The notes under the pieces are model-generated. The model was not told the origin of the DNA and did not search any database. It worked only from the letters and a program-made list of their open reading frames with translations. Source: a virus. Taken from it: 44,464 nt of DNA. Both the position numbers and the translations under genes were made by a program. The DNA lies in the UHGV virus genome UHGV-0192852, one strand, 5' to 3'. The number at the start of each line of letters is the position of its first letter. Positions within the stretch are counted from its first letter, which is position 1. Shown in pieces: positions 2,720-44,464 of this stretch.

Positions 2720-2836
2720 ATGAATCCTGCATTACTGGCGGCTATTATCGCCGCAAATACTAAACGCCAACCAGAACCAGAACCGGAGCCAGCACCAGAA
2801 CCACCGGTACAGGAGGATGATAATGGCGGGCTTTAA
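2720..2836 (+). CDS. small Pro/Glu-rich hypothetical protein (38 aa)
   Basis: ATG 2720 directly after previous stop; MNPALLAAIIAANTKRQPEPEPEPAPEPPVQEDDNGGL; below track size cutoff, uncertain. Confidence 0.25.
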   Translation: MNPALLAAIIAANTKRQPEPEPEPAPEPPVQEDDNGGL

Positions 2837-3176
2837 TTACGCTGGATTAAAGCGGAAAGTGAATCCGCTGATTAAAAAATTCGGCATGACCGTTACGGTT
2901 ACGCGTCCGGGGTCGGTTGACCGCGTAGACGGCGACGAAGTGGTAATCCCGCCAACGTCGTTCGACGTCATAGGTCTTCGCGAGGAGTACAAGCCTAGCG
3001 AGATCGACGGAACGCGTATCGTTGCCGGTGATGTGAAGTTTTTATGTCGGGCGGTTGAGCAATTGCGGGTGGGCGACCTTGTTAACCTGAACGGCACTGA
3101 CTACCGGGTCGTTAACCCTAACCCACTGCAACCGGCGGGGACGACCATGCTGTTTCAACTACAGCTAAGGGGCTAA
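2817..3176 (+). CDS. putative head closure/head-tail joining protein
   Basis: 119-aa ORF in neck module between connector and tail genes. Confidence 0.4.
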   Translation: MIMAGFNYAGLKRKVNPLIKKFGMTVTVTRPGSVDRVDGDEVVIPPTSFDVIGLREEYKPSEIDGTRIVAGDVKFLCRAVEQLRVGDLVNLNGTDYRVVNPNPLQPAGTTMLFQLQLRG

Positions 3177-3177
3177 C

Positions 3178-3771
3178 GTGGCTGAAGTCTACTCATTCGC
3201 CGCCACTATTGCTACGTGGGTGGATAAGACGAAGGAGAACAACGATAAGGCGGTGCGGGCGTACGGGATGCAAATACTCGGACGCCTTATTGAGATCTCC
3301 CCGGTGGGCGACCCTCGCCGGTGGAAAATTAACAGGGCTTACGCGCTGGCCCGCCAGCACGCGAACAAGGTGAACGCCGCGCAGCGTCGCAAGAATGGTG
3401 GCAAACTGAAGCGCGGGCAGAAAAAGCACGCCAGCGTGCTGGTATCATTCAAGACTAAAAACGGCAACGTCACGTTCCGCCAGCGTGGCTGGGCTGCGAA
3501 GAATTACACCGGCGGACGCTTCCGGGGAAACTGGCAGGTTACGTTCGACCGACCGGCGGTTGGCGCTATCGACCGCGTGGACAAGGCCGGAACGGCAACA
3601 TTAGCCGCTGGGCGTGAAGTGCTGGCGCATTACGATTCCGGTGAATACGGGTCGATCTGGTTTACTAACAACGTGCCATACGCGCAGCGACTTGAGTATG
3701 GCTGGAGTAAACAAGCGCCCGCGGGGATTGTTCGCGTCGTAGCGGCAGAAATTAATTCGAAGGTGAAATAA
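3178..3771 (+). CDS. putative neck/tail completion protein
   Basis: 197-aa ORF, synteny; start abuts previous stop. Confidence 0.4.
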   Translation: MAEVYSFAATIATWVDKTKENNDKAVRAYGMQILGRLIEISPVGDPRRWKINRAYALARQHANKVNAAQRRKNGGKLKRGQKKHASVLVSFKTKNGNVTFRQRGWAAKNYTGGRFRGNWQVTFDRPAVGAIDRVDKAGTATLAAGREVLAHYDSGEYGSIWFTNNVPYAQRLEYGWSKQAPAGIVRVVAAEINSKVK

Positions 3772-16277: not shown

Positions 16278-18659
16278 ATGGCAGCGGGTACTCTATCCGT
16301 AACGAATAACAGCACCGCGGTAGTCGGGACCGGCACAACGTTTACCGCGTTAAAGGCTGGCGACTTCTTATCGCTGGTAGTAGGGCAAGTCCCTTACACT
16401 GTGGCGATCGCGTCCATCGAGAGCGACACCGCGCTTACGCTGGTGCTGCCGTTCGACGGCCCCACGGCAACCGACCTCGCGTGGGACGGCGTTAAACGCG
16501 ATACCATGTCGCTGGCAACGATGGGCGTAACAGTACAGGCCCAGAAAGCGTTGCGCTTGATGATTGCAGATGAAAACAACTGGCGTGCAATCTTCGGCGA
16601 CGCTGAAGAAATCACAGTGACGTTACCTAACGGGCAGGTTATGCAGGGCATGTCATGGGGCTATCTGTCGCAGTTGATGAATCAGATCGATCCTGTAGAG
16701 ATGCGCAACCTGCAACAACAAGCCGCTGCGTCGGAGGCTGCCGCACAGGGATTTCGTAATGAAGCCGAAGGCATCAAGAATACGACAGCTGGCATTCGCG
16801 ATGCCACCGACCTGATCAAGACTGAAACACAGGCTATCCACGACGCAACCAATACCATCAAGGGCCAGACGAACCAGATCAAGACTGAAACACAGGCCAT
16901 CAAGGACCAGACGAACCAGATCAAGACTGACACTGGCGTTATGAGGGACGAGGCTAACACCGCGAAGAGTGACGCGCAAGCCGCCAGCACTGCCGCGCAG
17001 GGATTTCGCGATCAGGCCCAAGAATGGGCGCAAAGCATCAATGCGGATAACCTGCTAACCAAATCAGGCAACCTGGCAGGGCTGACCGACAAAACGCAGG
17101 CATGGCTTAATGTTCGCCCAGACGGGGCCACGCCATTGGCGGGCGACCCTGTAGGTGACTACGACGCTGCGACAAAGCGCTGGGTGCAGAACCTTATCAA
17201 CTCCGGCACGATCGGCCCAACAATGAATGGCGTGATGAACTACGGCGTCGGCGATTTCCACCTTCGCGATAGCCGCGCATACATTCAGCCGTATGAAGTA
17301 GTGTCAGACGGGCAATTGCTTAATCGCGCTGACTGGCCCGAACTATGGGCTTATGCTCAAATGCTTTCACCTATTGAAGATGCAGACTGGCTTGCGGACC
17401 CCGCAAATCGCGGTAAATATTCTCTGGGTGACGGTACAACTACGTTCCGCGTGCCAGACCGTAACGGTGTGCAATCTGGATCTATTGCTGGGCTATATGG
17501 AAGAGGCGACGGGGTAGGAAATGGAACGGCAAATTCTTTGATAAACGGGGAAGTGTTCGATTCGGGTGCTCCCAACATCATTGGTGATATTGGCGCTGTT
17601 CTGTCTTACGGAGCCAGTGGCGCATTTGCCTATGTGCGTCAAGCAGCTGACGTTTCCGGTGTGCCAGTCGGCACAGGTCTTGGGACACAGATAGTTGCGT
17701 TTGATGCCGCAAAAAGCAGTGAAGTATACGGAAGGTATGATAACGAAATCATGGGCCGTAACTTCGTCGGCGTGTGGGTGATTCGTGCATCCGGCGGCTT
17801 CGTGGCAGCAAACACGTCGTGGTCAGTAATCAACGGCGACGCCACAAAACCGCCAGCGGGCACTACGGCAGACGGCGGTCAGCTAAAATCAGAGTATAAA
17901 GTAAACGGCACGGTAGAAGGTGAGTTGTTCTGGCGTATCCGAGCGGCAATCGGGGCCGAATATTACGCACGTTTGAACGTTTATAATGCCACCGCCAACC
18001 GCACCGCCGTTTATGACTTTGATGATCTAGGCACTTTCTCGGCGAAAAACCTGCGTTCTTTGGGTCGAATTGACTCCTATGGTGGTATTACTCTCCAGAA
18101 ACAGGGATTCCCTAGCGTATACTTTAACTCGAGTAGGTATGCCTCGCCGAATACGCAGGTTGGCGCGATAACATTGATTCAGGTGACTGGGGCGGACGGA
18201 GCAGTATCTAGCGTAAACCTTATCAGGAGACGCGACGATGGTACCCAAACTGGCCAGATCGTTGTTACATTCCCAACCAGCAGCGGAATTCTCGCGCTGC
18301 AAGGTACGTCGGGCCGCGAGTATAAGAAAGATATTGCCGATGCAGACGCAAGCGAGGCTATGGACCGCATTAGCCGCCAGCGTCTTGTTAACTTCGTGTA
18401 CAAGGATGACGAGAAGGGCCGCCGGCGCTTCGGTATTATCGCCGAAGAAGCGGAGTTGATCGCGCCGCAATACGTCAAGCACATCGAGGTTCCCGTCGAG
18501 GATATCTTAGACGAAGACGGCAACAAAATCGGCGAGAAAACACGGGATAGACCGTCCGTCGACGTTAACCCGATCGTAATGGACTTAATGGGGTGTGTTC
18601 AATATCTCAATAAGCAGGTTGAGGAGTTGAAGGCCGAGATCGCGGCGCTGAAGAAATAG
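16278..18659 (+). CDS. tail fibre protein with C-terminal intramolecular chaperone (peptidase S74-like) domain
   Basis: 793-aa ORF; coiled repeats (IKTETQAI...); C-terminal SGREYKKDIADADA...RRFGIIAEEAELIAPQYV resembles self-cleaving chaperone domains of tail fibres/endosialidases. Confidence 0.75.
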   Translation: MAAGTLSVTNNSTAVVGTGTTFTALKAGDFLSLVVGQVPYTVAIASIESDTALTLVLPFDGPTATDLAWDGVKRDTMSLATMGVTVQAQKALRLMIADENNWRAIFGDAEEITVTLPNGQVMQGMSWGYLSQLMNQIDPVEMRNLQQQAAASEAAAQGFRNEAEGIKNTTAGIRDATDLIKTETQAIHDATNTIKGQTNQIKTETQAIKDQTNQIKTDTGVMRDEANTAKSDAQAASTAAQGFRDQAQEWAQSINADNLLTKSGNLAGLTDKTQAWLNVRPDGATPLAGDPVGDYDAATKRWVQNLINSGTIGPTMNGVMNYGVGDFHLRDSRAYIQPYEVVSDGQLLNRADWPELWAYAQMLSPIEDADWLADPANRGKYSLGDGTTTFRVPDRNGVQSGSIAGLYGRGDGVGNGTANSLINGEVFDSGAPNIIGDIGAVLSYGASGAFAYVRQAADVSGVPVGTGLGTQIVAFDAAKSSEVYGRYDNEIMGRNFVGVWVIRASGGFVAANTSWSVINGDATKPPAGTTADGGQLKSEYKVNGTVEGELFWRIRAAIGAEYYARLNVYNATANRTAVYDFDDLGTFSAKNLRSLGRIDSYGGITLQKQGFPSVYFNSSRYASPNTQVGAITLIQVTGADGAVSSVNLIRRRDDGTQTGQIVVTFPTSSGILALQGTSGREYKKDIADADASEAMDRISRQRLVNFVYKDDEKGRRRFGIIAEEAELIAPQYVKHIEVPVEDILDEDGNKIGEKTRDRPSVDVNPIVMDLMGCVQYLNKQVEELKAEIAALKK
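16812..16933 (+). repeat. intragenic tandem DNA repeats within tail fibre gene
   Basis: ATCAAGACTGAAACACAGGC at 16815 and 16877; CAGACGAACCAGATCAAGACTGA at 16866 and 16908. Confidence 0.7.
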
Positions 18660-24677: not shown

Positions 24678-26968
24678 TATTTTCTATACCTGTACATGAT
24701 GTCGCCTTCTGCGGCAAGTGGGAAGCCTTTCGCCCAAATAGGCAGGTCGCACATCAGTGCGCAAAGCTCCTCGGTCGTGTAGTCGTCGGTGTCCGGCACT
24801 TCTGTGATCAATTCGTCGTGTACTGACAGGACTATTTCATAGCCCGCAGCTTCAACGCCAGGCATGGACCACGCGAGGATATCGCGACACAGCGCCTGTA
24901 CGATGTTTTCCGTCAGTTTGCCGCCGTAGGTATACTGGAAGCCCCACTGGCGCGTCGTCTGATTCTCGCCCTGGTATTTGATGCGGGTGCTGGTGCGCTT
25001 CTTGCCGGTGTCTTCGTCGATCTCGGTAGTGACAGACAGCGCGATGCCGGGGTAGCTCATGATGCGCCCCGACGGCAACTCAATTTTCAACCACCAACCG
25101 GCGGCGTTCGGGTCGTCGCGCTCCTCGTCGAAGGTTGGGTCGTGCTTCGCCTTCGTGCGCACAATCTTAAGCGCTTTCCTACCGTCCGGGCGAACGTTCG
25201 CGCCAGCCCAGTATGCTTTGCCCGGATTGCGGATTGCACACAACACCGCGTCCTCAAGCTCGGCCCAAAAGGCTACCGTCTTCGGGTGGGCCTCACGCCA
25301 CATACGTTTGATCGCGTCGCAGGTCAGCCAAACGTTTTTAGGCAGTATGTATGTTGGGCGCTCGTCTTTCTTGCCAGGCTTCGGAGGGCGTTTTGCTTCG
25401 TTAATGCGGGCGTACTCATATCCTCGTTTCGCCGCCGCCCAAATGTGATCCGGGAACGTGCCTTTCATCACGTCAGCCATAGTGTAAAGGTCGAGGCCCA
25501 GGTTTTTAGCGAACTGCAAGAACGCCGCGACGCCGCCACCATAGCCCAGTCCCAATTCACACGCCTTACCGATCTGGCGCAAGTCTTTGCGGTTGGCTTT
25601 AATGTAGTCCGGGTCCAGGCCGAACATCTTACCGGCAGTCTCACAATAGATATCGCGACCGGCCCTAAACACCATTAGCGCGGTTTTCTCGCCCGCGATC
25701 CAGGCAAGTCCACGCCCTTCCACGTTGGAGTAGTCCGCTACGACAAACTTCTTGCCCTTAGCCGGGATAATGCACCCGCGAACGGTCGAGGCTGTTAGCT
25801 TCGATATGTCATACGCCCAGTGCGCTGTCCCGCGTAACAGGGAGTTGATGCCGTTGGTGAGCATGTGCGACCGGACCCAAAAAGCGACGTCGCTCTCGCC
25901 TTCGCGGCGCTTAATCTTCCCTTCGTGATCGTCGCTATACTCGCCGCGTGCCAGGTTTTGGGGCTGGAAGCCTTTACCCGCCCAGCGTAGCGTGCGCTTT
26001 GCCCCTCCATACTGAAGACAACCACGGCGGCGACCATCGGCAGACAGGCCATTGACGAGCGGATTGTATTTAGTCGATGCCGTTGATGACGCCCCGAGGC
26101 GCATCTCAATCAGCGCTTTGCCCTCGTCCGGGAAGTCCGGGTCTTCAAGCAGGTCGTTAAGTGTGGATTTCTGCGCGTTGTGAATCGTGAACGCCGGGGC
26201 AATATCACGCAGAATCGGCAGGAAGTCGTTGCCGGTTAGCTTACCGCCGAACCGTTCCCATGCCTCTTCCTTCAATTCGTCCTTATGCGCCTGCACCGCC
26301 TTGATCGCGGCGTTCGCCAGGTCAACGTCTACGTTGAATCCGCGGTCATTAATCAACTGGTCGATGAGCAGGATTTCATCTTCCTTCGGCGTGTTGCCCC
26401 AGTCCGGTATGCGCCAGTAGACTTCACGCATGGCAACAATATCCAGCGCGGCATAGCGCAGGAATTTTGCCCATTCTTCAGGGTGCGTCTCGCGCGTGTA
26501 GCGGCGGATTTTGTAGGTCTTAGGGGTGGGCTTACAGAATCGTTTAATCAGCGCCTTGCCTGCCTTATCCTTCGCGTGCTCTGCGTCAACGCCCAGCACC
26601 TGGCACTGCATATCGAGGCTACCGGGCAGCGCGTGGCGAAAGGCCATAATCATGGTGTCTTCGATCTGGCTTACCGGCAGGTCAATGCCCCACTTCTCGC
26701 GAATGACCAAGCGGTCAAACAGAAGGCCGTTAGCCATCACGATTTTTGCTTTCTTGCGGGATACCTGGCGGAGCGCCTTGCGCAGTTCACGCGGCATTGT
26801 GGGGGATTCAGTGCAATCCCATGTCTGCACGCGGCCCTCGTCGATGGCGTAGGTGCAAATCATAATCTCGGTTGATGGGTGTTCTGCGTAGGCGTAAGCG
26901 CCGACTTTCTTCAGGTCCACATCGCTGAACGTCTCGGTGTCGAGAAACAGGCGTTCGAAGTCTTTCAT
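24677..26968 (-). CDS. family A DNA polymerase with 3'-5' exonuclease domain
   Basis: N-terminal LDTETFS Exo I motif; R-x-GK...GLGYGGG (motif B-like) and VHDELITEV (motif C); 763 aa. Confidence 0.85.
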   Translation of the reverse strand: MKDFERLFLDTETFSDVDLKKVGAYAYAEHPSTEIMICTYAIDEGRVQTWDCTESPTMPRELRKALRQVSRKKAKIVMANGLLFDRLVIREKWGIDLPVSQIEDTMIMAFRHALPGSLDMQCQVLGVDAEHAKDKAGKALIKRFCKPTPKTYKIRRYTRETHPEEWAKFLRYAALDIVAMREVYWRIPDWGNTPKEDEILLIDQLINDRGFNVDVDLANAAIKAVQAHKDELKEEAWERFGGKLTGNDFLPILRDIAPAFTIHNAQKSTLNDLLEDPDFPDEGKALIEMRLGASSTASTKYNPLVNGLSADGRRRGCLQYGGAKRTLRWAGKGFQPQNLARGEYSDDHEGKIKRREGESDVAFWVRSHMLTNGINSLLRGTAHWAYDISKLTASTVRGCIIPAKGKKFVVADYSNVEGRGLAWIAGEKTALMVFRAGRDIYCETAGKMFGLDPDYIKANRKDLRQIGKACELGLGYGGGVAAFLQFAKNLGLDLYTMADVMKGTFPDHIWAAAKRGYEYARINEAKRPPKPGKKDERPTYILPKNVWLTCDAIKRMWREAHPKTVAFWAELEDAVLCAIRNPGKAYWAGANVRPDGRKALKIVRTKAKHDPTFDEERDDPNAAGWWLKIELPSGRIMSYPGIALSVTTEIDEDTGKKRTSTRIKYQGENQTTRQWGFQYTYGGKLTENIVQALCRDILAWSMPGVEAAGYEIVLSVHDELITEVPDTDDYTTEELCALMCDLPIWAKGFPLAAEGDIMYRYRK

Positions 26969-35874: not shown

Positions 35875-35909
35875 AGTCCCAGTGAGATAAAACTTACTGG
35901 GACTTTTTT
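35875..35909 (+). terminator. rho-independent terminator
   Basis: perfect 9-bp stem AGTCCCAGT/ACTGGGACT, 12-nt loop, T6 run. Confidence 0.7.
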
Positions 35910-36200
35910 ATGGATAAGCTAAACGAGTGGTTATTCGCCCTTGCGTGTCTTGCTGGTGGCTTCGTAGGCGCACGCATTCATGGCGAGGCAACGAAAGGGC
36001 CGTTGAACTTCGTTTTATATGTCGTAGTTGGCTTCCTGTGCGCCGTTTTTGGCGCTCCAGCGATTGCCGAGTGGTCTGGTTTGTCTGGCGAGCGCACTGT
36101 CGCCGGTTTGGGCTTCGTAACTGCCATCTTCTGGATGCCAATAGCGGACCGGATCAGGGAGACTATTGAGTCGTTCCGACTTCCGGGGGGCGCAAAATGA
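35910..36200 (+). CDS. putative holin/antiholin
   Basis: 96-aa protein with about three hydrophobic segments, two genes upstream of endolysin. Confidence 0.5.
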   Translation: MDKLNEWLFALACLAGGFVGARIHGEATKGPLNFVLYVVVGFLCAVFGAPAIAEWSGLSGERTVAGLGFVTAIFWMPIADRIRETIESFRLPGGAK

Positions 36201-36442
36201 TTATCTCCGTCCTGTTGTTTGTTATCATCGGGGCTTCGTCCCTGTTTAACGTGTATGCGCCGTCCGTCCAGGATGGCATTTTCGGTCGGGTGTTATATCT
36301 ACTAACGGCGATGGTCTGTGTTATCGGACTGTTGCAAACAGGAGACGTATCGAACACCACCTGGACCGCGTTAATCTGGCTGTTTGCATTGCGCACCCTG
36401 CGTAATGCTGTTTTGAATGGGGTAAAACATGCGATTCAGTGA
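36197..36442 (+). CDS. putative holin
   Basis: 81-aa protein with 2-3 hydrophobic segments, directly upstream of and overlapping endolysin start. Confidence 0.5.
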   Translation: MIISVLLFVIIGASSLFNVYAPSVQDGIFGRVLYLLTAMVCVIGLLQTGDVSNTTWTALIWLFALRTLRNAVLNGVKHAIQ

Positions 36443-36920
36443 CAACGGTCTAAGATTTACGGCAGCATGGGAGCAATTCAGCCCAGTGCCGTATTTCGCG
36501 ACTAAGAAAGAGCAGGCCCGCGGCCTGTACACCTGGGGCTATGGGCACACCGGCACAAATCCGCCACGAAGCATTACCCGCGCGGAAGCGCTGGAGCTAC
36601 TCAAGCGAGATGTGGCATATGCAGAAAACTGGGTGAACAAGTACGCACACCATAGCATCAACCAGGCGCAATTCGACGCGCTGGTGGACCTGGTTATCAA
36701 CGCCGGTCCTGGTCCGATCATGCCGGACGACATCGCCGGAGACTTCGACGATGCGATCCGCCTGGGTGACTGGGTAAAGGTCCGCGCTACGCTGCCACAA
36801 TTCCGCAAGCAAGGCGGGGTAGTGCTCAAGGGGCTTGTCCGTCGTGCGATCGGCAGACAGGCGCTATTCGATGGTAAGCAGTGGGACGTTGCCGAGAAAA
36901 TCGGGCGAAACGCCGCATAA
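36429..36920 (+). CDS. endolysin (GH24 phage lysozyme, P22 gp19-like)
   Basis: SDNGLRFTAAWE...GYGH...QFDALVDLVINAG...GLVRRA matches conserved lysozyme blocks. Confidence 0.85.
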   Translation: MRFSDNGLRFTAAWEQFSPVPYFATKKEQARGLYTWGYGHTGTNPPRSITRAEALELLKRDVAYAENWVNKYAHHSINQAQFDALVDLVINAGPGPIMPDDIAGDFDDAIRLGDWVKVRATLPQFRKQGGVVLKGLVRRAIGRQALFDGKQWDVAEKIGRNAA

Positions 36921-36936
36921 TACGAGGGGACACAGT

Positions 36937-37104
36937 ATGTTAAAAAGTATTCTTGATCATAACGCCGACGCGCTCGCCGCGCTGGCTAAAACCGAAGACC
37001 CAGGCGCACGTGCCATTATCGCGGACACTATCAGTCATGCTGGCGTCTTTGATGCGAAGCTGCCAAGCCCGCCACCGCCGGAAGAAACCGGCCCAGCGGC
37101 CTAA
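36937..37104 (+). CDS. small hypothetical protein
   Basis: ATG 36937 (MLKSILDH...) in frame within track ORF 36835..37104; Pro-rich C-terminus; followed by terminator. Confidence 0.4.
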   Translation: MLKSILDHNADALAALAKTEDPGARAIIADTISHAGVFDAKLPSPPPPEETGPAA

Positions 37105-37517: not shown

Positions 37518-38660
37518 ATGCACCCGCAAACTAAAATCACCGACGAGCAATTGATCGCCGAGCTGCAATCTGGCACTACCTCGAAAGATATTGCGAAGAA
37601 GTACGGTCTTTCCTTACGAAATGTCTACATGCGCAAAGCCCGCCTGTCGAAGAAAGGTATTGGTCACGGAAACGATGCCGTAATCCGTAAGCGCGTTGCC
37701 GATGGCTTCGGTGTTAAGCGTGTCTCCGCCCTGGTGCGCGGAAATGGCGAAGAGGTCATGTCGTGGGTTATCACTGAGCAGGACAAGGAGCGCCAGCTTG
37801 AAGCCATGCGCGCCGCTGTCGAGGGAATGAACAGCGAAATCACACCGGCAGCACCAGTTAGCGCCCCGCCAGTCCCGATCCAGGCGCTTGACCTGCTCAA
37901 TCTGTACACCGTGTCTGACTTCCACCTGGGCATGTTGGCATGGGGCGAGGAGACTGGCGAGGATTGGGATATGGCAATCGCCGAAGATCTGTTTTACCGC
38001 TGGTTTGTCGAAGCCTTCGCGCGCGCACCGGACGCAGGCACTGCCGTAATCAATATCCTCGGTGATATGGCGCACTTTGATAGCCTCGATGCCGTCACTC
38101 CAGCCAGTGGTCACATCCTGGACGCAGATACCCGATACCAGAAGTTGGTCCGCTACATGATTCGCATGGTGCGCAACGTGGTAGACCTGGCGCTGCAAAA
38201 ACACCACAAAGTCAAACTTCTAATCGTCCAGGGGAATCATGACGAGTCGGGTATGATCTGGCTTGCGGAGATGTTCAATACCCTGTATGAGAACGAGCCG
38301 CGCGTCGATGTGGATACGTCCCCGGACGTGTACAAAATGGTGCAACACGGCAAGACCACGCTGTTTTTCCACCACGGGCATAAGGCGCGTTTTGACGCTA
38401 TTGAAACCGTCATGATTTCCAAATTCAGGAAAGCATTTGGCGAAAGCGAGTACAGCTACGCGCATGTAGGCCATTTGCACCACCAGAAGATTGTTGAATC
38501 CCGCAACATGATTGTTGAGCAGCACCGGACACTCGCGGCGAAAGACGCATACGCCAGCCGCGGTGGTTGGATGTCCGGTCGTAGTGCCAACGTCATCACC
38601 TACAGCGCCAACTACGGCGAAGTGGCGCGCTTAACCATTAGCCCGGAGATGTTGAAGTAA
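37518..38660 (+). CDS. HTH domain + calcineurin-like metallophosphoesterase protein
   Basis: N-terminal TSKDIAKKYGLSLRNVYMRK HTH; C-terminal ILGDMAHFD, GNHDE, GHLHH metallophosphoesterase motifs. Confidence 0.6.
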   Translation: MHPQTKITDEQLIAELQSGTTSKDIAKKYGLSLRNVYMRKARLSKKGIGHGNDAVIRKRVADGFGVKRVSALVRGNGEEVMSWVITEQDKERQLEAMRAAVEGMNSEITPAAPVSAPPVPIQALDLLNLYTVSDFHLGMLAWGEETGEDWDMAIAEDLFYRWFVEAFARAPDAGTAVINILGDMAHFDSLDAVTPASGHILDADTRYQKLVRYMIRMVRNVVDLALQKHHKVKLLIVQGNHDESGMIWLAEMFNTLYENEPRVDVDTSPDVYKMVQHGKTTLFFHHGHKARFDAIETVMISKFRKAFGESEYSYAHVGHLHHQKIVESRNMIVEQHRTLAAKDAYASRGGWMSGRSANVITYSANYGEVARLTISPEMLK

Positions 38661-38681
38661 CGGCAACCCGTAAGCCTCTCA

Positions 38682-38705
38682 GCCTGCCGATTTGGTGGGC
38701 TTTTT
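38682..38705 (+). terminator. putative terminator
   Basis: GCCTGCC-GATTT-GGTGGGC stem (two G-U pairs) followed by TTTTT. Confidence 0.35.
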
Positions 38706-38719
38706 TGTGCCTGTTATAA
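38692..38719 (+). promoter_or_regulatory. promoter with extended -10 upstream of terminase operon
   Basis: TTGGTG-N16-TGTTATAAT (TGn extended -10 at 38711..38719). Confidence 0.45.
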
Positions 38720-38790
38720 TCCACCTTAGATGGCAGGGCCGTCTCCTATGTTGCCGATGGTCGGCGCATATGAACAAAAGGGCTTATATC

Positions 38791-39342
38791 ATGGCAGAAA
38801 TCAAAGTTAAGGGCCGACGCGCCAAACTGGACGGACGAGTAGCAGTAACCCCGCGCCGTAAACCAGGCGAGCAAACAGAGCACACCAATCTCGGACCTGA
38901 AATCGAGTACGGAAAGCGCCGTAAAGGCGGAAAATGTGGACGCCCTACTGACTACCGATCCGTTTACTGCGACCAGCTTCGCCGCTATTTTGCCGACGCC
39001 GACGCCTGGCAGGTAAACTACTCCGATAAAGGCGCTGCGCAAGTAATCCCCCGCAACAAAATGCCGACCTTCGGTCGTTTTGCCGCAGAAATTGGTGTGG
39101 GCGTAGCTTGCCTGTATCGCTGGGCGCGTGCGCATGAGGAGTTCGCCGAGGCGATGGCGGACGCTATGGAGTTGCAGAAAACTTTCCTGATGGAAGCTGG
39201 CGGCGTGACCATCGCGGCAGGCTTCGCTACGTTCCTGCTTAAAGCAAACCACGGCATCCGGGACGATGTACCGCTGGATGACGACGAAGATGATAACGGC
39301 GACGTCGTTGTCGAACCCACCGGCAAAGGTCAGGGTGAGTAA
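38791..39342 (+). CDS. terminase small subunit
   Basis: 183-aa protein immediately upstream of and overlapping terminase large subunit; AAAGGG RBS; HTH-like FGRFAAEIGVGVACLYRWARAHEEF. Confidence 0.6.
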   Translation: MAEIKVKGRRAKLDGRVAVTPRRKPGEQTEHTNLGPEIEYGKRRKGGKCGRPTDYRSVYCDQLRRYFADADAWQVNYSDKGAAQVIPRNKMPTFGRFAAEIGVGVACLYRWARAHEEFAEAMADAMELQKTFLMEAGGVTIAAGFATFLLKANHGIRDDVPLDDDEDDNGDVVVEPTGKGQGE

Positions 39343-40737: not shown

Positions 40738-42258
40738 ATGACCGTTAACGTTGACAACCAGCACCCACTTTATGCGCGCATCGCGCCAGAGTGGAAAATG
40801 ATCCGTGATTGTGTAGCAGGGGAGCGCGCAGTGAAGGCGTGCGGCCCCTTGTACCTGCCTCATCCCGCCAGCGGCGACAATACTGACCCGAAAGCACGGG
40901 CGCGGTATAAGGCGTACAAGCAACGCGCTGTATTCCTGAACGCCACCGCCCGCACACTTAACGCGCTGTTAGGCGTTGCCTTTGCTAAACCGGTAAGTCT
41001 GGACCTTTCCGGGGCTATGGCTGACCTGATTGACGACGTAGACGGCAGCGGTATGCCTCTGCCGCAACTCCTGCGCGGTGCTATGTCGGAAGTGCTGCAA
41101 TCAGGACGTGCGGGCTTTATGGTCGACTACGACCGCCAGGCGCATTTTGATGAACTGGGTAACGTAGTGCCGCAGACCGCCGCCGAGATGGCGTCACACC
41201 GCCCGCTTATCCGCCTGTACACGGCAGAACAGATCATCAACTGGCGGCAGACCCACGGCGTCGATACGCTAATTGTGCTGAAGGAAACGGACGAAATCAG
41301 CACCGAAGACCCGGACGATTTCGCAAACCACGAAGTCACAATCTGGACTGAATTGCGCATGATTAACGGTGTGGCACACGCCCGCCGCTGGTTTTACAAC
41401 GCTGACACGTCCGAGGTGCAGATGGACTTGCCGCGAGGCTTCACCCGCACCGACCTTGTACCATTGGTGGATGCCTCCGGTAATGCGCTAACTCAACTGC
41501 CATTTTGCTGGTGTGGCGCGGTGGACAACAACGCGACACCGGACGCCGCACCGCTGGCGGATATTGCGTCCATCAACATTAAGCACTACAACGCCGAAGC
41601 GGACGTCGCCGAGATTGCGCACATCGTGGGGCAACCTACCCTCATTGCGACTGGTCTTACCCAATCATGGGCGGACAAGAACCTGAAAGGCGGCATCGCG
41701 CTCGGGGCAACTAAGGGCGTTATCCTGGGCCAGAACATGGACGCCAAACTGCTTCAGGCGGAGGAGCGCAACTTGTCTGTTGCACTATGTGAGCGCCGCG
41801 AATTGCAAATGGCTAAACTTGGCGCGGCCCTGGTAGAGAAGGGGACCGCACCTAAGACGGCAACCGAGGCGGCCTATGATGCGCAGACTGATAACAGTAT
41901 CCTGTCACTGATTGCCGGTAACGTCGAGAAGGCGTTCAACCGTGCTCTGCAAATCGTTAAGCTGTTCACTGGCGACACCGCAGACCAACGCGTAACGCTG
42001 AATAAGTTCTACACCGAAATCACGGTTGACGCGCAGCTTATGTCCGCAATGATGGCTGGTGTGCAGACCGGTACGGTCCGTCTGGCGGACTTTATCAAGT
42101 GGATGATGGCCCAGGGCGTTATTGACGACTCGCAGACCGTCGAACAGGTGGAAGACGAACTGCGAAATCAGAATCCATTGCCTCAAATGTCCCCGGATGC
42201 GGTAGACTCTACCGAAGAAGACCCGGACAAGGTAGTGGACAATGGCGAAGACAATTAA
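40738..42258 (+). CDS. portal protein
   Basis: 506-aa ORF between terminase and head morphogenesis genes; acidic C-terminus. Confidence 0.8.
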   Translation: MTVNVDNQHPLYARIAPEWKMIRDCVAGERAVKACGPLYLPHPASGDNTDPKARARYKAYKQRAVFLNATARTLNALLGVAFAKPVSLDLSGAMADLIDDVDGSGMPLPQLLRGAMSEVLQSGRAGFMVDYDRQAHFDELGNVVPQTAAEMASHRPLIRLYTAEQIINWRQTHGVDTLIVLKETDEISTEDPDDFANHEVTIWTELRMINGVAHARRWFYNADTSEVQMDLPRGFTRTDLVPLVDASGNALTQLPFCWCGAVDNNATPDAAPLADIASINIKHYNAEADVAEIAHIVGQPTLIATGLTQSWADKNLKGGIALGATKGVILGQNMDAKLLQAEERNLSVALCERRELQMAKLGAALVEKGTAPKTATEAAYDAQTDNSILSLIAGNVEKAFNRALQIVKLFTGDTADQRVTLNKFYTEITVDAQLMSAMMAGVQTGTVRLADFIKWMMAQGVIDDSQTVEQVEDELRNQNPLPQMSPDAVDSTEEDPDKVVDNGEDN

Positions 42259-43345
42259 TCAATATATGGCGGATCGAATGATTCGCCGTCACATCTTCAC
42301 CCAGCGCCTGAGTAATGACCAGGCGCGGAGGGTGTTGGCTATGTGGGAGAAGTTCCGGCCCACGTTACTGGGTAAGCTGACCGAGTTGCTTGATGGTAAA
42401 AAGTCCATGAGCAACAAGGCGCTTACCACCCTGTTAACGCAACTCGACAAGACCGTCAAAACGGAACTGCGCACCGAGTTTAAGGTGCTGGCTGAAAGCC
42501 TTCAGGAGTTCGCCGACACCGAGGCCGATTATCTCGCCGACACATTAACGGCAGCGATCCAGCCGGTGGTCGCCGTACCAGCGGTCGAGGTGGTTGGCGT
42601 AGTGACCGGTGCGCAGATCGCAGCGACGGCAATGAAAAACCCGTTCCAGGGTAATACGATGATGCAATGGCCGGACTCACTTTCTGAGTGGACCAGGACG
42701 CAGATCGGCAATCAGGTGCGCGCCGGATTCATCCAGGGCAAGCCAACGATGGAAATTATCGCGGACGTGAGGCGCGCGCTAGGCGGTCGTAGTGCGCAAG
42801 CCATCTCAAGCGTTGTTAAGTCCGCAGTCAACCACTATGCGGCGACCGCCCGCGAACTAATGGTAAAAGCAAATGACGATATTCTCGAAGGTCGCCAATG
42901 GTTATCTACATTGGACACGCATACTTCTCCCATGTGCCAGCTACGCGATCGCCTGTTTTATCCGGTTGATGTTACTCCCGATACGAAAGGGAAGCGAGGC
43001 GGAAAAGTGGTGGCGGGATCACAATATGGCGCTGGTCCGGGCAAGCTACATTATTGCTGCCGCTCGACGGAGACGTGGAAAGTCAAAGGTATGGAAGATT
43101 GGCCCAGTGGTAAGCGTCCGGCATTGAAGGCCGACGCAGGCAGATTGCTGAGTGAGCAGGTCGACGCGCAGACGGATTTCTTCTCATGGGTACAGCGCCA
43201 GCCGCGCCATATCCTGGAGGAATTATATGGAGTGCAACGCGCCGACCAGATTATGCGCGGCGTGAAAGTGCCGAAGATGTTTACCGATTCTGGCGAACTG
43301 ATGACTATCGCACAGCTTAAAAACCGGGGGTTATGGCGTGATTAA
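42242..43345 (+). CDS. head morphogenesis / minor capsid protein (SPP1 gp7 / Mu F-like)
   Basis: 367-aa ORF after portal; conserved-looking LSTLDTHTSPMCQ region. Confidence 0.75.
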   Translation: MAKTINQYMADRMIRRHIFTQRLSNDQARRVLAMWEKFRPTLLGKLTELLDGKKSMSNKALTTLLTQLDKTVKTELRTEFKVLAESLQEFADTEADYLADTLTAAIQPVVAVPAVEVVGVVTGAQIAATAMKNPFQGNTMMQWPDSLSEWTRTQIGNQVRAGFIQGKPTMEIIADVRRALGGRSAQAISSVVKSAVNHYAATARELMVKANDDILEGRQWLSTLDTHTSPMCQLRDRLFYPVDVTPDTKGKRGGKVVAGSQYGAGPGKLHYCCRSTETWKVKGMEDWPSGKRPALKADAGRLLSEQVDAQTDFFSWVQRQPRHILEELYGVQRADQIMRGVKVPKMFTDSGELMTIAQLKNRGLWRD

Positions 43346-43667
43346 ATATGCAGCTATTGGACTAGTTATCGGTCTGGCGGTAGGATTCTGGCTAGGTGAC
43401 TCCTATCGTGCTGGCGTAGTGGCAGAGGCGGCGCAAGAAGCGCAAGCCCAAGCCCAACGGCAGCAAACTAAAGTTGTCGAGCGCTCCGTGCAGGCCGAAC
43501 AAGCCCGCGACGTAGAATACCGGACTATCACGAAAGAGGTTGTTAAATATGTTACGCGCCCTAACCGCCCTGATTGTAGTTTTGATGCTGAGCGCGTGCG
43601 GATCAAGCAACGCGCCGTTGATGCCGCTAACGGAGTCGGCACTGCGACCGCCGTGCAAGTTCGATAA
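43338..43667 (+). CDS. i-spanin (Rz-like)
   Basis: GTG start; N-terminal TM segment (AAIGLVIGLAVGFWL) then Ala/Gln-rich coiled region; an overlapping +1-frame lipoprotein gene follows. Confidence 0.55.
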   Translation: MIKYAAIGLVIGLAVGFWLGDSYRAGVVAEAAQEAQAQAQRQQTKVVERSVQAEQARDVEYRTITKEVVKYVTRPNRPDCSFDAERVRIKQRAVDAANGVGTATAVQVR

Positions 43668-43779
43668 CCCGTCTGCGGACCCCGACGAAGATTTGATGAT
43701 TGACGTGAAAAATATGGAATGCGGGGCGAAGCTGAGGGCGCAGGTGTTGGAGTTGCAGCAGATAATTAAGGGGCCGTAA
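43549..43779 (+). CDS. o-spanin (Rz1-like outer-membrane lipoprotein)
   Basis: LIVVLMLSAC lipobox signal peptide, Pro-rich mature region; starts inside the i-spanin gene in another frame and extends beyond it (overlapped architecture); alternative ATG at 43540. Confidence 0.55.
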   Translation: MLRALTALIVVLMLSACGSSNAPLMPLTESALRPPCKFDNPSADPDEDLMIDVKNMECGAKLRAQVLELQQIIKGP

Positions 43780-43790
43780 TGGCCCCTTTT
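43770..43790 (+). terminator. terminator between convergent genes
   Basis: GGGGCC-GTAAT-GGCCCC hairpin followed by TTTT. Confidence 0.65.
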
Positions 43791-43793
43791 CCG

Positions 43794-44464
43794 TTAGCGA
43801 GGAATGCCGCAAATCTCGTTGAGTGTTTTCACATCCAGCGCCACCGCCGTGGATTTTGGCTTGTCCGGGTAAGGGATGAATTGCTCAACTTCAGGCCATG
43901 CCTTGATCAGCTTCTTATCGGTATTGTGCATATCCAGCACGCCGGTCACAGTTAGCTTGAATGCGTCATACTTCGCACGCAACTCGCGGCGGGCCTTGTC
44001 GTTACGGTCCAGGCGCTTGCAGAAATCATGGTCCGCCGGATAGTCTATACGACCGCGTGGCTTATATATCGGCAGCGCTTTCCCGTCATCGTCTAATTCG
44101 CACACTGACGCTAACATAATTTCCTCATACCCTGGCACAATATCGCCGAGATCGGGAGACAGCTTATTCATGTATTTATACTCCCAGTATCCGCGATGTA
44201 CTCGGTATTGGAGTCCGTCGCCGCTCAATGACAAGGTGCGAACGTTACCGCCTGCGTTGATTTCGAAAGTGGCATCGTAAACGCCGCCAATACCTTTTGG
44301 GCGGTCGGTGTTATAACTATACGTCGCCTTGTTGGTGTATACGCAGACGCCGTACATCTGCGACGGGTCATCGCTGATTGCTTCAATGTGCGCACGTAGC
44401 TCGGCGAACGTATGAATGCCCACCGGCATACAGTGTAACGTAATGTCATACGCCAGGTTGCGTG
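43794..44464 (-). CDS. hypothetical protein, C-terminal segment of the 254-aa gene spanning the circular junction
   Basis: minus ORF open to the window end; joins in frame with 111..1 after removing the 17-bp duplicate. Confidence 0.6.
   Translation of the reverse strand, partial: RNLAYDITLHCMPVGIHTFAELRAHIEAISDDPSQMYGVCVYTNKATYSYNTDRPKGIGGVYDATFEINAGGNVRTLSLSGDGLQYRVHRGYWEYKYMNKLSPDLGDIVPGYEEIMLASVCELDDDGKALPIYKPRGRIDYPADHDFCKRLDRNDKARRELRAKYDAFKLTVTGVLDMHNTDKKLIKAWPEVEQFIPYPDKPKSTAVALDVKTLNEICGIPR
44448..44464 (+). repeat. terminal duplicate of positions 1..17 (circular assembly overlap)
   Basis: ATACGCCAGGTTGCGTG present at both window ends. Confidence 0.9.

Follow-up and report, generated by a model that had tools for sequence, protein, structure and literature searches.

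The window, by which we mean the whole stretch of 44,464 nucleotides that was analysed, is the complete permuted genome of a Dhillonvirus (HK578-like siphovirus) with a nucleotide identity of 93-95% to the sequenced members of the genus. Behind its head-morphogenesis gene, which is annotated as the same neighbour in related phages, lie two overlapping reading frames that a first sequence-only reading had placed at 43338..43667 and 43549..43779 and described as an overlapped spanin pair; both were recovered at exactly these positions. They are referred to here as the i-spanin and the o-spanin gene and are listed together with the surrounding features in Table 1. From the end of the endolysin gene to the start of the i-spanin gene we counted 6418 nt (43338-36920), in agreement with the distance of about 6.4 kb from the holin-endolysin genes (35910..36920) that had been claimed.

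Table 1. Genes and sequence elements at the spanin locus and in the lysis and head-gene regions of the window
Feature	Position	Strand	Description
Two holin-like membrane protein genes	35910..36200, 36197..36442	+	phrog_2359, phrog_2508 ('holin'); hydrophobic segments
Endolysin gene, phage lysozyme type	36429..36920	+	Phage_lysozyme PF00959 (E 6.3e-20); phrog_7
Terminator-like hairpin (38681..38701), then T6, then extended -10 TGTTATAAT (38712..38720)	38681..38720	+	
Head-morphogenesis gene (SPP1 gp7 / Mu F-like)	42242..43345	+	phrog_241 (E 1.3e-116); immediately upstream of the i-spanin gene
i-spanin gene	43338..43667	+	GTG start, 109 aa; ORF list, hydrophobicity, phrog_2536
Shine-Dalgarno-like AAGAGG	43534..43539	+	9 nt upstream of the o-spanin ATG
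o-spanin gene	43549..43779	+	ATG start, 76-aa precursor; ORF list, lipobox, phrog_5672, phrog_1267
Hairpin	43768..43788	.	8-bp stem (6 G-C, 2 A-U); loop contains the o-spanin stop codon

The i-spanin reads MIKYAAIGLVIGLAVGFWLG, followed by a hydrophilic remainder. Its Kyte-Doolittle maximum over 15 residues (2.3) is found at the N-terminus (residues 5-19), where a single transmembrane segment is predicted at approximately residues 4-20, as is characteristic of an inner-membrane spanin by the criteria of Summer 2007 and Kongari 2018. Ala and Gln account for 53% of residues 25-56 (counted by hand), and an AlphaFold2 model calculated from the single sequence contains a helix from residue 3 to 72, a break, and a further helix from 84 to 97, at low confidence (pLDDT 58.5). 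The proposed transmembrane protein with an Ala/Gln-rich periplasmic part is thereby supported, and its periplasmic domain may be mostly alpha-helical, for which the AlphaFold2 model counts as weak support only. With 87 periplasmic residues the protein is short. It contains one Cys (C80) and a conserved ITKEVVKYV motif, and in an alignment with distant homologues V68, K70, Y71 and C80 are invariant. The GTG start overlaps the stop codon of the head-morphogenesis gene by 8 nt, and because of this overlap translational coupling between the two genes is suggested.

The o-spanin gene, read in the +1 frame ((43549-43338) mod 3 = 1), has its start within the i-spanin gene, shares 119 nt with it and runs 112 nt beyond its end, which places the pair in the overlapped class. 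The precursor reads MLRALTALIVVLMLSAC and continues with GSS; with the lipobox set apart this is MLRALTALIVVLM-LSAC-GSS. The lipobox L-S-A-C with Cys17 and the preceding signal were assessed by a regular expression together with hydrophobicity, the Kyte-Doolittle maximum over 15 residues (2.4) again being located at the N-terminus. As the +2 residue is Gly and not Asp, the protein lacks a signal for retention in the inner membrane, and sorting to the outer membrane is expected. In a six-frame lipobox scan of the window three ORFs were found, among which 43549..43779 scored best; the others (18340..18459, which lies in another frame of the tail-fibre gene, and 25865..25990, 41 aa) do not adjoin the lysis cassette. 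Mature o-spanin has 60 residues including 7 Pro, of which 6 occur within the first 30, so the Pro-rich lipoprotein of the sequence-only reading is moderately Pro-rich, less so than lambda Rz1. Beyond the lipid Cys it contains C36 (PPC) and C59 (MEC) in precursor numbering and a helix-like C-terminal segment. Periplasmic Cys residues that might form disulfides, typical of spanins, are therefore present in both partners (C80 in the i-spanin, C36 and C59 in the o-spanin), and all of them are conserved. The Shine-Dalgarno-like AAGAGG falls among the i-spanin codons for the conserved KEVVKY; since TTG 43540 would leave zero spacing after it, ATG 43549 is the likely start of the o-spanin.

To describe selection on the two frames we used 19 Dhillonvirus sequences aligned over 442 nt, in which no indels occur. 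In the i-only part pN/pS is 0.16 in the i-frame, and in the o-only part it is 0.12 in the o-frame. Within the overlap the values are 0.43 (i-frame) and 0.61 (o-frame), indicating constraint on both, and every non-coding frame has a pN/pS above 1. The lipobox with its +2 feature and the number of o-spanin Cys residues are kept in 19/19 relatives, where the GTG start of the i-spanin is conserved too. Both frames are under purifying selection in these related phages. One could object that only the 109-aa gene is real and that the +1 ORF is open by chance, given that 79 open codons are not very rare ((61/64)^79 ~ 0.02) and that several GenBank records carry a truncated 159-nt version or no o-spanin at all. 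There is next to no probability left for this objection: in the 112 nt past the i-spanin stop the pN/pS of 0.12 in the o-frame contrasts with 3.6-4.7 for the remaining frames, the lipobox is retained throughout, the Shine-Dalgarno element is good and properly spaced, and the lipoprotein ORF persists in homologues with as little as 21% identity. Judging from these comparisons, the selection and distant-homologue data effectively refute a chance frame already.

All profile matches point to a spanin. The i-spanin matched phrog_2536 (E 1.9e-36), phrog_8821 and phrog_1152, and the o-spanin phrog_5672 (E 2.4e-26) and phrog_1267 (E 4.4e-12), each annotated 'Rz-like spanin'; these matches to PHROG 2536/1152 and 5672/1267 assign the two proteins to the Jersey i- and o-spanin families. 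The family is covered by PHROGs only, as NCBIfam and Pfam scans of both proteins returned nothing meaningful, and specifically no Pfam match to Rz (PF03245 Phage_lysis) or Rz1 (PF06085) at E <= 0.1. By tblastn the pair reaches Jersey, K1G, SETP7 and wksl3. In alignments the i-spanin is 41% identical to its counterpart in Jersey and 36% in K1G, the o-spanin 46% and 45%, respectively, and the lipid Cys and the PPC of the o-spanin are kept in distant homologues. Five IMG/VR contigs carry homologues of both proteins (29-42% identity) directly downstream of holin and endolysin genes, the holins belonging to PF16931, PF05449 and PF04550 and the endolysins to GH19, Hydrolase_2 and Peptidase_M15_4. 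Kongari et al. 2018 (PMC6139136) placed the Dhillonviruses HK578, JL1, EP23, SSL-2009a, SO-1 and EK99P-1 in overlapped 'Jersey' i- and o-spanin families. Their short subfamily (EP23 to SO-1, including HK578 and JL1) is characterised by an i-spanin whose two helices are joined by a linker and by an o-spanin in which two Cys are conserved.

On the grounds of anatomy, homology and gene context we are highly confident that 43338..43667 and 43549..43779 are the genes of a two-component spanin belonging to the short subfamily of the 'Jersey' family. The pair is a genuine and conserved inner-membrane/outer-membrane spanin of a coliphage, and its role is most likely the breakage of the host outer membrane at lysis. 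The observations behind this assignment are direct ones, namely the gene anatomy, the conservation, the dual-frame selection, the assignment to families and the location of distant homologues in lysis cassettes. Together with the published catalogue they also uphold the claim of an overlapped pair that lies after the head-morphogenesis gene and apart from the holin-endolysin genes. A literature search on Jersey and Dhillonvirus spanins yielded annotation-level statements, and no experiment on any Jersey-family member was found in the searchable literature; the functional assignment therefore rests on anatomy, homology and gene context.

Small phage lipoproteins with roles in exclusion or receptor masking exist, for example T5 Llp and T1 Cor. 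The latter is mentioned in PMC5238451. A lipoprotein with a membrane partner could accordingly serve superinfection exclusion or receptor masking rather than disruption of the outer membrane, and the separation of the two genes from the lysis cassette, as well as the lack of a direct functional test of the Jersey family in the searchable literature, would be compatible with such an envelope role. We consider it very improbable, because homologues immediately follow the endolysin in canonical cassettes, because an overlapped pair of transmembrane protein and lipoprotein with periplasmic Cys in both is the defining signature of spanins, and because the phage would be left without a spanin despite a Gram-negative host and a canonical holin-endolysin system. 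Even less credit is given to a function in head assembly or in the virion. It draws on the place in the head gene cluster, between the head-morphogenesis and scaffold genes, which is conserved from Dhillonvirus to Jerseyvirus and Kagunavirus, but the export and membrane-anchor signals on both proteins are unfit for cytoplasmic capsid assembly, and homologues elsewhere reside in lysis cassettes with no head genes nearby. A 'structural' annotation occurs in 0/60 sampled rows of 667 matching phage records. Homologues annotated as virion structural proteins had been named beforehand as evidence that would speak against spanins; the labels found in close relatives in GenBank are 'putative spanin', 'Rz-like spanin' and 'o-spanin', none of them designating a virion protein.

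The lysis cassette itself contains no spanin candidate beside its two holin genes and the endolysin gene. The 55-aa ORF that follows the endolysin gene (36937..37104) was considered as a second spanin and rejected, having neither a transmembrane segment nor a lipobox; it corresponds to phrog_11068, which has no assigned function in PHROG, and is called 'major tail protein' in some records. In the endolysin no N-terminal hydrophobic (SAR) segment was found, no 19-residue Kyte-Doolittle window exceeding 0.9, and it is for this reason regarded as a soluble, holin-dependent enzyme. A unimolecular spanin of the T1 gp11 type was also rejected, as the o-spanin has no C-terminal hydrophobic segment and none of the three ORFs from the lipobox scan of the window combines a lipobox with a C-terminal transmembrane segment.

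A further aspect concerns transcription. The hairpin at the o-spanin stop codon sits between the convergent o-spanin and Nmad5 genes, with a fold energy of -15.5 kcal/mol on the + strand (z -2.8) and -15.9 on the - strand (z -3.2). It looks like a candidate bidirectional terminator, which a consensus terminator scan missed because its T-run is short. The element at 38681..38720 lies within the 130-nt gap that separates the phosphoesterase gene from that of the small terminase, and its sequence is unchanged in BMA1 and JLBYU60; the 141-nt stretch around it (38655..38795) shows 95-99% identity across more than 120 phage records, and in one of these a terminator is annotated at this place. This element could represent the boundary or start of a packaging-head-spanin transcription unit. 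Separate transcription units for the spanins and for the holin-endolysin genes, as put forward in the sequence-only reading, are plausible, and the two elements would agree with such a division.

In lambda, the pR' transcript extends from S over cos and reaches the head genes. An analogous long late transcript might carry both the spanins and the holin-endolysin genes here if the two hairpins, 35875..35904 and 38681..38701, were read through. All genes between about 34.9 and 43.8 kb share the + strand, and scanning upstream of the small terminase gene gave no sigma-70-like promoter that included a -35 element. Among the terminator-like hairpins the strongest (-21.5 kcal/mol, z -6.2) has its end 5 nt away from the holin ATG, too close for a promoter to fit in between, so that transcription of the holin gene must pass a structure resembling a terminator; by implication, termination in this phage is leaky or regulated. 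What weighs against a single transcript is the conserved hairpin with T6 directly behind the phosphoesterase stop, which has a perfect extended -10 element, TGTTATAAT, after it, as would be expected at an operon boundary with restart. We regard the single transcript as unlikely, while still giving it some weight.

It is conceivable, though in our view rather doubtful, that the position of the spanins in the string of head genes is functional and not historical, their dosage and timing being tied to the expression of the capsid genes and uncoupled from the holin-endolysin genes. This idea is based on the placement being common to Dhillonvirus, Jerseyvirus and Kagunavirus, on the apparent coupling of the i-spanin to the head-morphogenesis gene in Dhillonvirus, and on the holin-endolysin cassette being located behind a strong terminator-like hairpin. 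If true, the lysis system would possess two separately regulated arms.

For a two-component spanin of this kind, membrane topology, lipidation, complex formation, membrane fusion and transcript structure are as follows, as far as we can infer them. The two genes would probably be expressed as the final two cistrons of the terminase-portal-head-morphogenesis string, with the hairpin after the o-spanin stop. The 109-aa product would be an inner-membrane protein of type II in which a long first helix and a second helix are joined by a short linker with the single Cys, while the 76-aa precursor would be cut and lipidated at Cys17 and then reach the outer membrane. If the pair works like lambda Rz/Rz1 and T4 PseT.3/PseT.2, the two proteins may bind each other through their C-terminal parts and form a disulfide-stabilised periplasmic bridge. 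An i-spanin of this length and a 60-residue o-spanin could be able to span the periplasm, considering that the T4 proteins are of comparable size (117 and 83 aa). Such bridges would be trapped inside the peptidoglycan mesh until the soluble lysozyme (36429..36920), released by the holins (35910..36442), has degraded the wall. The spanin complexes might then be freed, change their conformation and fuse the inner with the outer membrane, thus removing the last barrier to phage release.

With the pair assigned, the Gram-negative lysis set of the phage is complete and comprises two holin-like proteins, a soluble lysozyme and a two-component spanin. The pair and its location within the head-gene cluster were both catalogued before for this phage group, and spanins unlinked to the holin and endolysin genes are known from T4 and Jersey-like phages; it is an ordinary find, and its importance is small beyond getting the annotation right. 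This may still be of use to annotators, as many GenBank records of Dhillonvirus list the i-spanin as 'hypothetical' or 'exported protein', and in several the o-spanin is cut to 159 nt and has lost its signal peptide and lipobox. The start at 43549, which the sequence-only reading had chosen, is the correct one.

The designation 'Rz/Rz1-type' holds for the mechanism class and the gene architecture and fails for the family. Probabilities by hhalign are 0.2% for the i-spanin against lambda Rz and 0.6% against P2 LysB, and for the o-spanin 38% against lambda Rz1 and 26% against P2 LysC, the latter two values reflecting the signal peptide and the Pro-rich stretch only. Membership in the Rz/Rz1 family was therefore rejected, the i-spanin being unrelated by profile and the o-spanin similarity being weak and compositional; by these profiles the i-spanin is a functional analogue in a family separate from lambda Rz and P2 LysB. 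What the pair has in common with lambda Rz/Rz1 is an inner-membrane protein of type II whose periplasmic domain is helical, together with a small Pro-rich lipoprotein of the outer membrane that is encoded in the +1 frame; both partners also contain periplasmic Cys. In lambda, however, Rz1 is wholly embedded in Rz and the pair adjoins S and R; moreover, the i-spanin is smaller than lambda Rz (109 versus 153 aa), and mature o-spanin is larger than Rz1 (60 versus 40 residues) and has a predicted C-terminal helix.

The overlapped layout resembles P2 LysB/LysC and not the embedded layout of lambda. In P2 the o-spanin likewise has its +1-frame start within the i-spanin gene and its end beyond that gene, and both pairs lie within a late morphogenetic operon, whereas lysB and lysC directly follow the holin and endolysin genes. 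T4 PseT.3/PseT.2 are similar in size (PMC6139136), and their o-spanin also has a C-terminal helix and two Cys, but the T4 genes are separated and non-overlapping. In Jersey and K1G the gene order agrees with the one observed here, holin-holin-endolysin being placed upstream of the terminase genes and the spanins between head morphogenesis and scaffold. The differences are a Hoc-like gene between the head-morphogenesis gene and the spanins, where in the present genome the start of the i-spanin and the stop of the head-morphogenesis gene overlap, and the next neighbour of the o-spanin: in Jersey and K1G this is the scaffold gene, on the same strand, and here it is a hairpin and a variable cassette on the minus strand (Nmad5 gene). 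From the short subfamily of the Jersey spanins the pair does not differ in any essential respect, sharing with it the genus, the overlapped architecture, a two-helix i-spanin with a linker, and an o-spanin with two conserved periplasmic Cys.

Megablast of positions 42800..44464 matched 158 records of the phage collection, nearly all from Escherichia/Shigella Dhillonvirus, with 93-95% identity over the whole query. Dhillonviruses are HK578-like siphoviruses with genomes of about 44-45 kb. Given this identity and a length of 44,464 bases, the window can be regarded as a complete, circularly permuted Dhillonvirus genome. The sequence-only reading had placed an overlapped spanin pair next to the head-morphogenesis gene and 6.4 kb away from a holin-holin-lysozyme cassette (35910..36920). 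The ORF listing returned the same coordinates and frame for the pair, the adjoining gene matched phrog_241 (head morphogenesis, E 1.3e-116), and both the cassette and its distance were confirmed.

The product of the first ORF (i-spanin) starts with MIKYAAIGLVIGLAVGFWLG. Its Kyte-Doolittle 15-residue maximum of 2.3 lies at residues 5-19, the remainder is hydrophilic, and Ala and Gln account for 53% of residues 25-56 (manual count). The ORF of the second protein (o-spanin) has a frame offset of +1, overlaps the i-spanin ORF by 119 nt and extends 112 nt beyond its end. From ATG 43549 the o-spanin starts with MLRALTALIVVLMLSAC followed by GSS and possesses a positively charged n-region, a hydrophobic core and the lipobox L-S-A-C with Gly at +2; six prolines within the first 30 residues and two further cysteines are found in the mature protein of 60 residues. 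This ATG is the likely start because the upstream TTG 43540 leaves no spacing after the AAGAGG motif, which precedes the ATG with a spacing of 9 nt. Three ORFs were retrieved by a six-frame lipobox scan of the entire window, the o-spanin with the top score.

The region was aligned for 19 distinct sequences: that of the window, three from GenBank relatives and 15 from IMG/VR relatives. Not a single indel occurs over the 442 nt of the spanin pair, and indels begin directly past the o-spanin stop. Variable sites are distributed over the codon positions as 23/11/46 in the DNA coding for the i-spanin alone (chi-square p = 6e-6) and as 12/6/22 in the DNA coding for the o-spanin alone (p = 0.01), each in its own frame. 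The pN/pS ratio (Nei-Gojobori, 19 sequences) is 0.16 in the i-frame of the former part (other frames 1.3 and 2.1) and 0.12 in the o-frame of the latter (other frames 4.7 and 3.6); in the overlap the two coding frames give 0.43 and 0.61 and the third frame 4.3. Taking indels, codon-position bias and pN/pS together, the two ORFs are real genes that encode proteins and are subject to purifying selection, the overlap included. The GTG start, the lipobox, the single cysteine of the i-spanin and the three cysteines of the o-spanin precursor are kept in 19/19 sequences. Among these relatives the i-spanin has 109 or 102 residues, which is in agreement with the variable extreme C-terminus known from the literature.

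The i-spanin matches phrog_2536 (E 1.9e-36), phrog_8821 and phrog_1152, and the o-spanin phrog_5672 (E 2.4e-26) and phrog_1267 (E 4.4e-12), all labelled "Rz-like spanin". By tblastn 667 phage records match the i-spanin, with Dhillonviruses at 83-99% identity, and Jerseyvirus, Kagunavirus, Klebsiella and other phages at approximately 40-60% over the conserved core ITKEVVKYV..P.R..C.F..ERV. The matches listed are annotated as "hypothetical", "spanin", "Rz-like spanin", "o-spanin" or "signal peptide-containing protein"; the other labels among them (head morphogenesis, capsid and scaffold, minor capsid) are those of the overlapping neighbour gene, and none of the listed homologues is itself called a virion structural protein, the annotation regarded by the sequence-only reading as contrary to a spanin function. 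V68, K70, Y71 and C80 of the i-spanin are invariant in the homologue alignment, as is the lipid-bearing cysteine of the o-spanin, whose PPC and DEDL..D..N.EC...LR motifs are widely kept. An AlphaFold2 model of the i-spanin, of low confidence, contains a helix at 3-72, a break at 73-83 with the cysteine, and a helix at 84-97.

Independent functional context for the spanin reading is supplied by the gene order around distant IMG/VR homologues. In three contigs a holin (PF16931), a holin (PF05449), a GH19 endolysin, the i-spanin homologue and an overlapped lipoprotein follow each other; in contig L025 the pair lies directly behind a Hydrolase_2 endolysin, and in L026 behind a PF04550 holin and an M15 peptidase. 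Among the ORFs adjoining the endolysin of the window's phage none qualifies as a spanin candidate.

We further report that in two independent distant homologues, L024 (IMGVR_UViG_3300033070_000410, 2926-3444) and L026 (IMGVR_UViG_2931094325_000002, 2791-3324), the long ORF in the i-spanin frame ends in an o-spanin-like C-terminal helix segment, N.E.C...R..I..WQ.WY (pairwise BLASTP E 0.001-0.003). In the other frame, the lipobox ORF is short or embedded and does not contain this segment. The pattern could reflect frameshift errors in both contigs or genuine movement of the o-spanin C-terminal module from one reading frame to the other.

In many records one or both spanin genes are "hypothetical". 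JLBYU60 names the i-spanin "conserved exported protein", and in StarDew and BMA1, also related Dhillonviruses, the o-spanin is annotated with 159 nt only, starting downstream of the lipobox. The phrog_5672 profile (47 positions) covers only o-spanin residues 32-76, which probably stems from such truncated entries. As the lipobox is conserved and left out by the truncated versions, the long form from 43549, as originally called, is correct.

Features of the window discussed in the text
Feature	Coordinates	Strand	Remarks
Lipobox-scan ORF	18340..18459	+	out of frame within tail-fibre gene
Lipobox-scan ORF	25865..25990		41 aa
Hairpin	35875..35904		12-bp perfect stem + T6; -21.5 kcal/mol, z -6.2; ends 5 nt 5' of first holin ATG
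ORF after endolysin	36937..37104	+	55 aa; phrog_11068, unknown function; Pro-rich tail
Calcineurin-like phosphoesterase ("DNA repair exonuclease")	37518..38660	+	380 aa; phrog_704; weak N-terminal HTH signal
Hairpin	38681..38701		8-9-bp stem + T6; 20 nt 3' of phosphoesterase stop
Extended -10 element, perfect	38712..38720		TGTTATAAT; directly after preceding hairpin + T6; ~70 nt 5' of small terminase ATG 38791
i-spanin ORF	43338..43667	+	GTG start, 109 aa
o-spanin ORF	43540/43549..43779	+	79/76 aa depending on start
Hairpin	43768..43788		8-bp stem (6 G-C + 2 A-U); -15.5 kcal/mol; o-spanin stop codon in loop; between o-spanin and convergent Nmad5 gene
Nmad5 protein gene	43794..44429	-	PF18757, nucleotide-modification-associated domain 5; E 2.2e-38; convergent to spanins

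From approximately 34.9 to 43.8 kb every gene is located on the + strand. The hairpin in front of the holin genes may represent a terminator or attenuator for entry into the lysis cassette, or may limit holin translation; lambda tR' and the sdi structure of the S gene are the cases for comparison. The first holin gene has no free Shine-Dalgarno sequence, its sole GGGA being part of the 3' arm of this stem. The segment of the second hairpin and the extended -10 element is identical in BMA1 and JLBYU60, and the surrounding 141 nt (38655..38795) show 95-99% identity across more than 120 records; in one of these a terminator is annotated at this place. The three hairpins and the extended -10 element fit a packaging/head/spanin unit from about 38720 to about 43790 separate from the holin-endolysin-phosphoesterase stretch, as the sequence-only reading had proposed, and we consider two such units fairly probable. 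A single long late transcript over holin-endolysin and spanins, as in lambda, is the less probable alternative. Holin transcription itself has to pass the strong terminator-like hairpin, which makes read-through or antitermination probable in this phage. The stop codon of the head-morphogenesis gene and the i-spanin GTG overlap (GTGATTAA, kept in 19/19), which suggests that translation of the i-spanin is coupled to that gene.

The intergenic stretch 38655..38795, 5' of the small terminase gene, exceeds its flanking genes in conservation. A number of GenBank records begin or end inside it (JLBYU60, for example, ends with ...GTGCCTGT), and it may harbour a packaging (cos/pac) site besides the terminator-promoter pair. 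In BMA1 an extra 195-nt ORF is inserted just upstream. The phosphoesterase gene lies downstream of the lysis cassette and upstream of the terminase genes. Some relatives label the 55-aa ORF "major tail protein", which looks wrong given its PHROG match and Pro-rich tail. The Nmad5 gene belongs to a cassette on the minus strand that separates the spanins from the scaffold gene and varies in content among Dhillonviruses: a 765-nt and a 369-nt gene in JLBYU60 and BMA1, a single 810-nt gene in StarDew, and two other small genes in Opt212. The lipobox-scan ORF inside the tail-fibre gene (16278..18659) encodes 39 residues with a signal-peptide/lipobox-like N-terminus, MQTQARLWTALAASVLLTSC; it is probably a chance ORF. 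By tblastn it matched just 15 phage records, with identity not exceeding 77% and every match within a tail-fibre gene. The C-terminal segment of the tail fibre has no close match among sequenced phages (tblastn).

A mechanistic outline can be drawn from the established biology of lambda Rz/Rz1 and T4 PseT.3/PseT.2 as summarised in PMC6139136. The i-spanin would be inserted in the inner membrane in the N-in, C-out orientation, and the o-spanin would be lipidated and then Lol-sorted to the outer membrane. Their C-terminal regions would associate into a complex stabilised by homotypic disulfides and caught in the murein mesh until the wall is degraded by soluble lysozyme released through the holin holes. 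The complexes could then oligomerise, collapse and fuse the inner and outer membranes. As the endolysin has no SAR-type hydrophobic N-terminus, the lysis system would follow the canonical holin-endolysin-spanin pathway.

The pair would thus work in the same way as lambda Rz/Rz1, and it has the same layout as P2 LysB/LysC. At the sensitivity available the i-spanin is unrelated in sequence to lambda Rz and P2 LysB (no Pfam match, hhalign probability below 1% against either), and the likeness of the o-spanin to Rz1 and LysC is limited to the signal peptide and the Pro-rich region (hhalign). The earlier designation as Rz/Rz1-type is therefore supported as regards a spanin pair, but not as regards the lambda Rz/Rz1 sequence family. 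HK578, JL1, EP23, SSL-2009a, SO-1 and EK99P-1 are all HK578-like phages. They are found in the overlapped "Jersey" i-spanin family and the matching o-spanin family of Kongari et al. 2018 (PMC6139136), to which the window's pair, judged by sequence, can also be assigned. Among the Jersey i-spanins, the members from EP23 to SO-1 form a shorter subfamily that has two helices plus a linker, and the o-spanins have two constant cysteines (PMC6139136); the low-confidence i-spanin model and the conservation data agree with these published features.

The spanin pair of Salmonella phage Jersey and coliphage K1G is preceded by the head-morphogenesis gene and a Hoc-like gene and directly followed by the scaffold gene, whereas in Dhillonviruses the minus-strand cassette is in between. 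The holin-holin-endolysin genes of Jersey precede the terminase genes, with the record ends in between, and are about 8.7 kb away from the spanins. For Dhillonvirus vB_EcoS_P78, described in 2025, holins (ORF31-32), endolysin (ORF33) and spanin (ORF40) were reported. Both the spanin pair of Dhillonvirus and its placement apart from holin and endolysin are already known, and the interest of the feature is low for this reason. Spanin genes far from the holin and endolysin genes are also textbook knowledge for T4 (PMC6139136).
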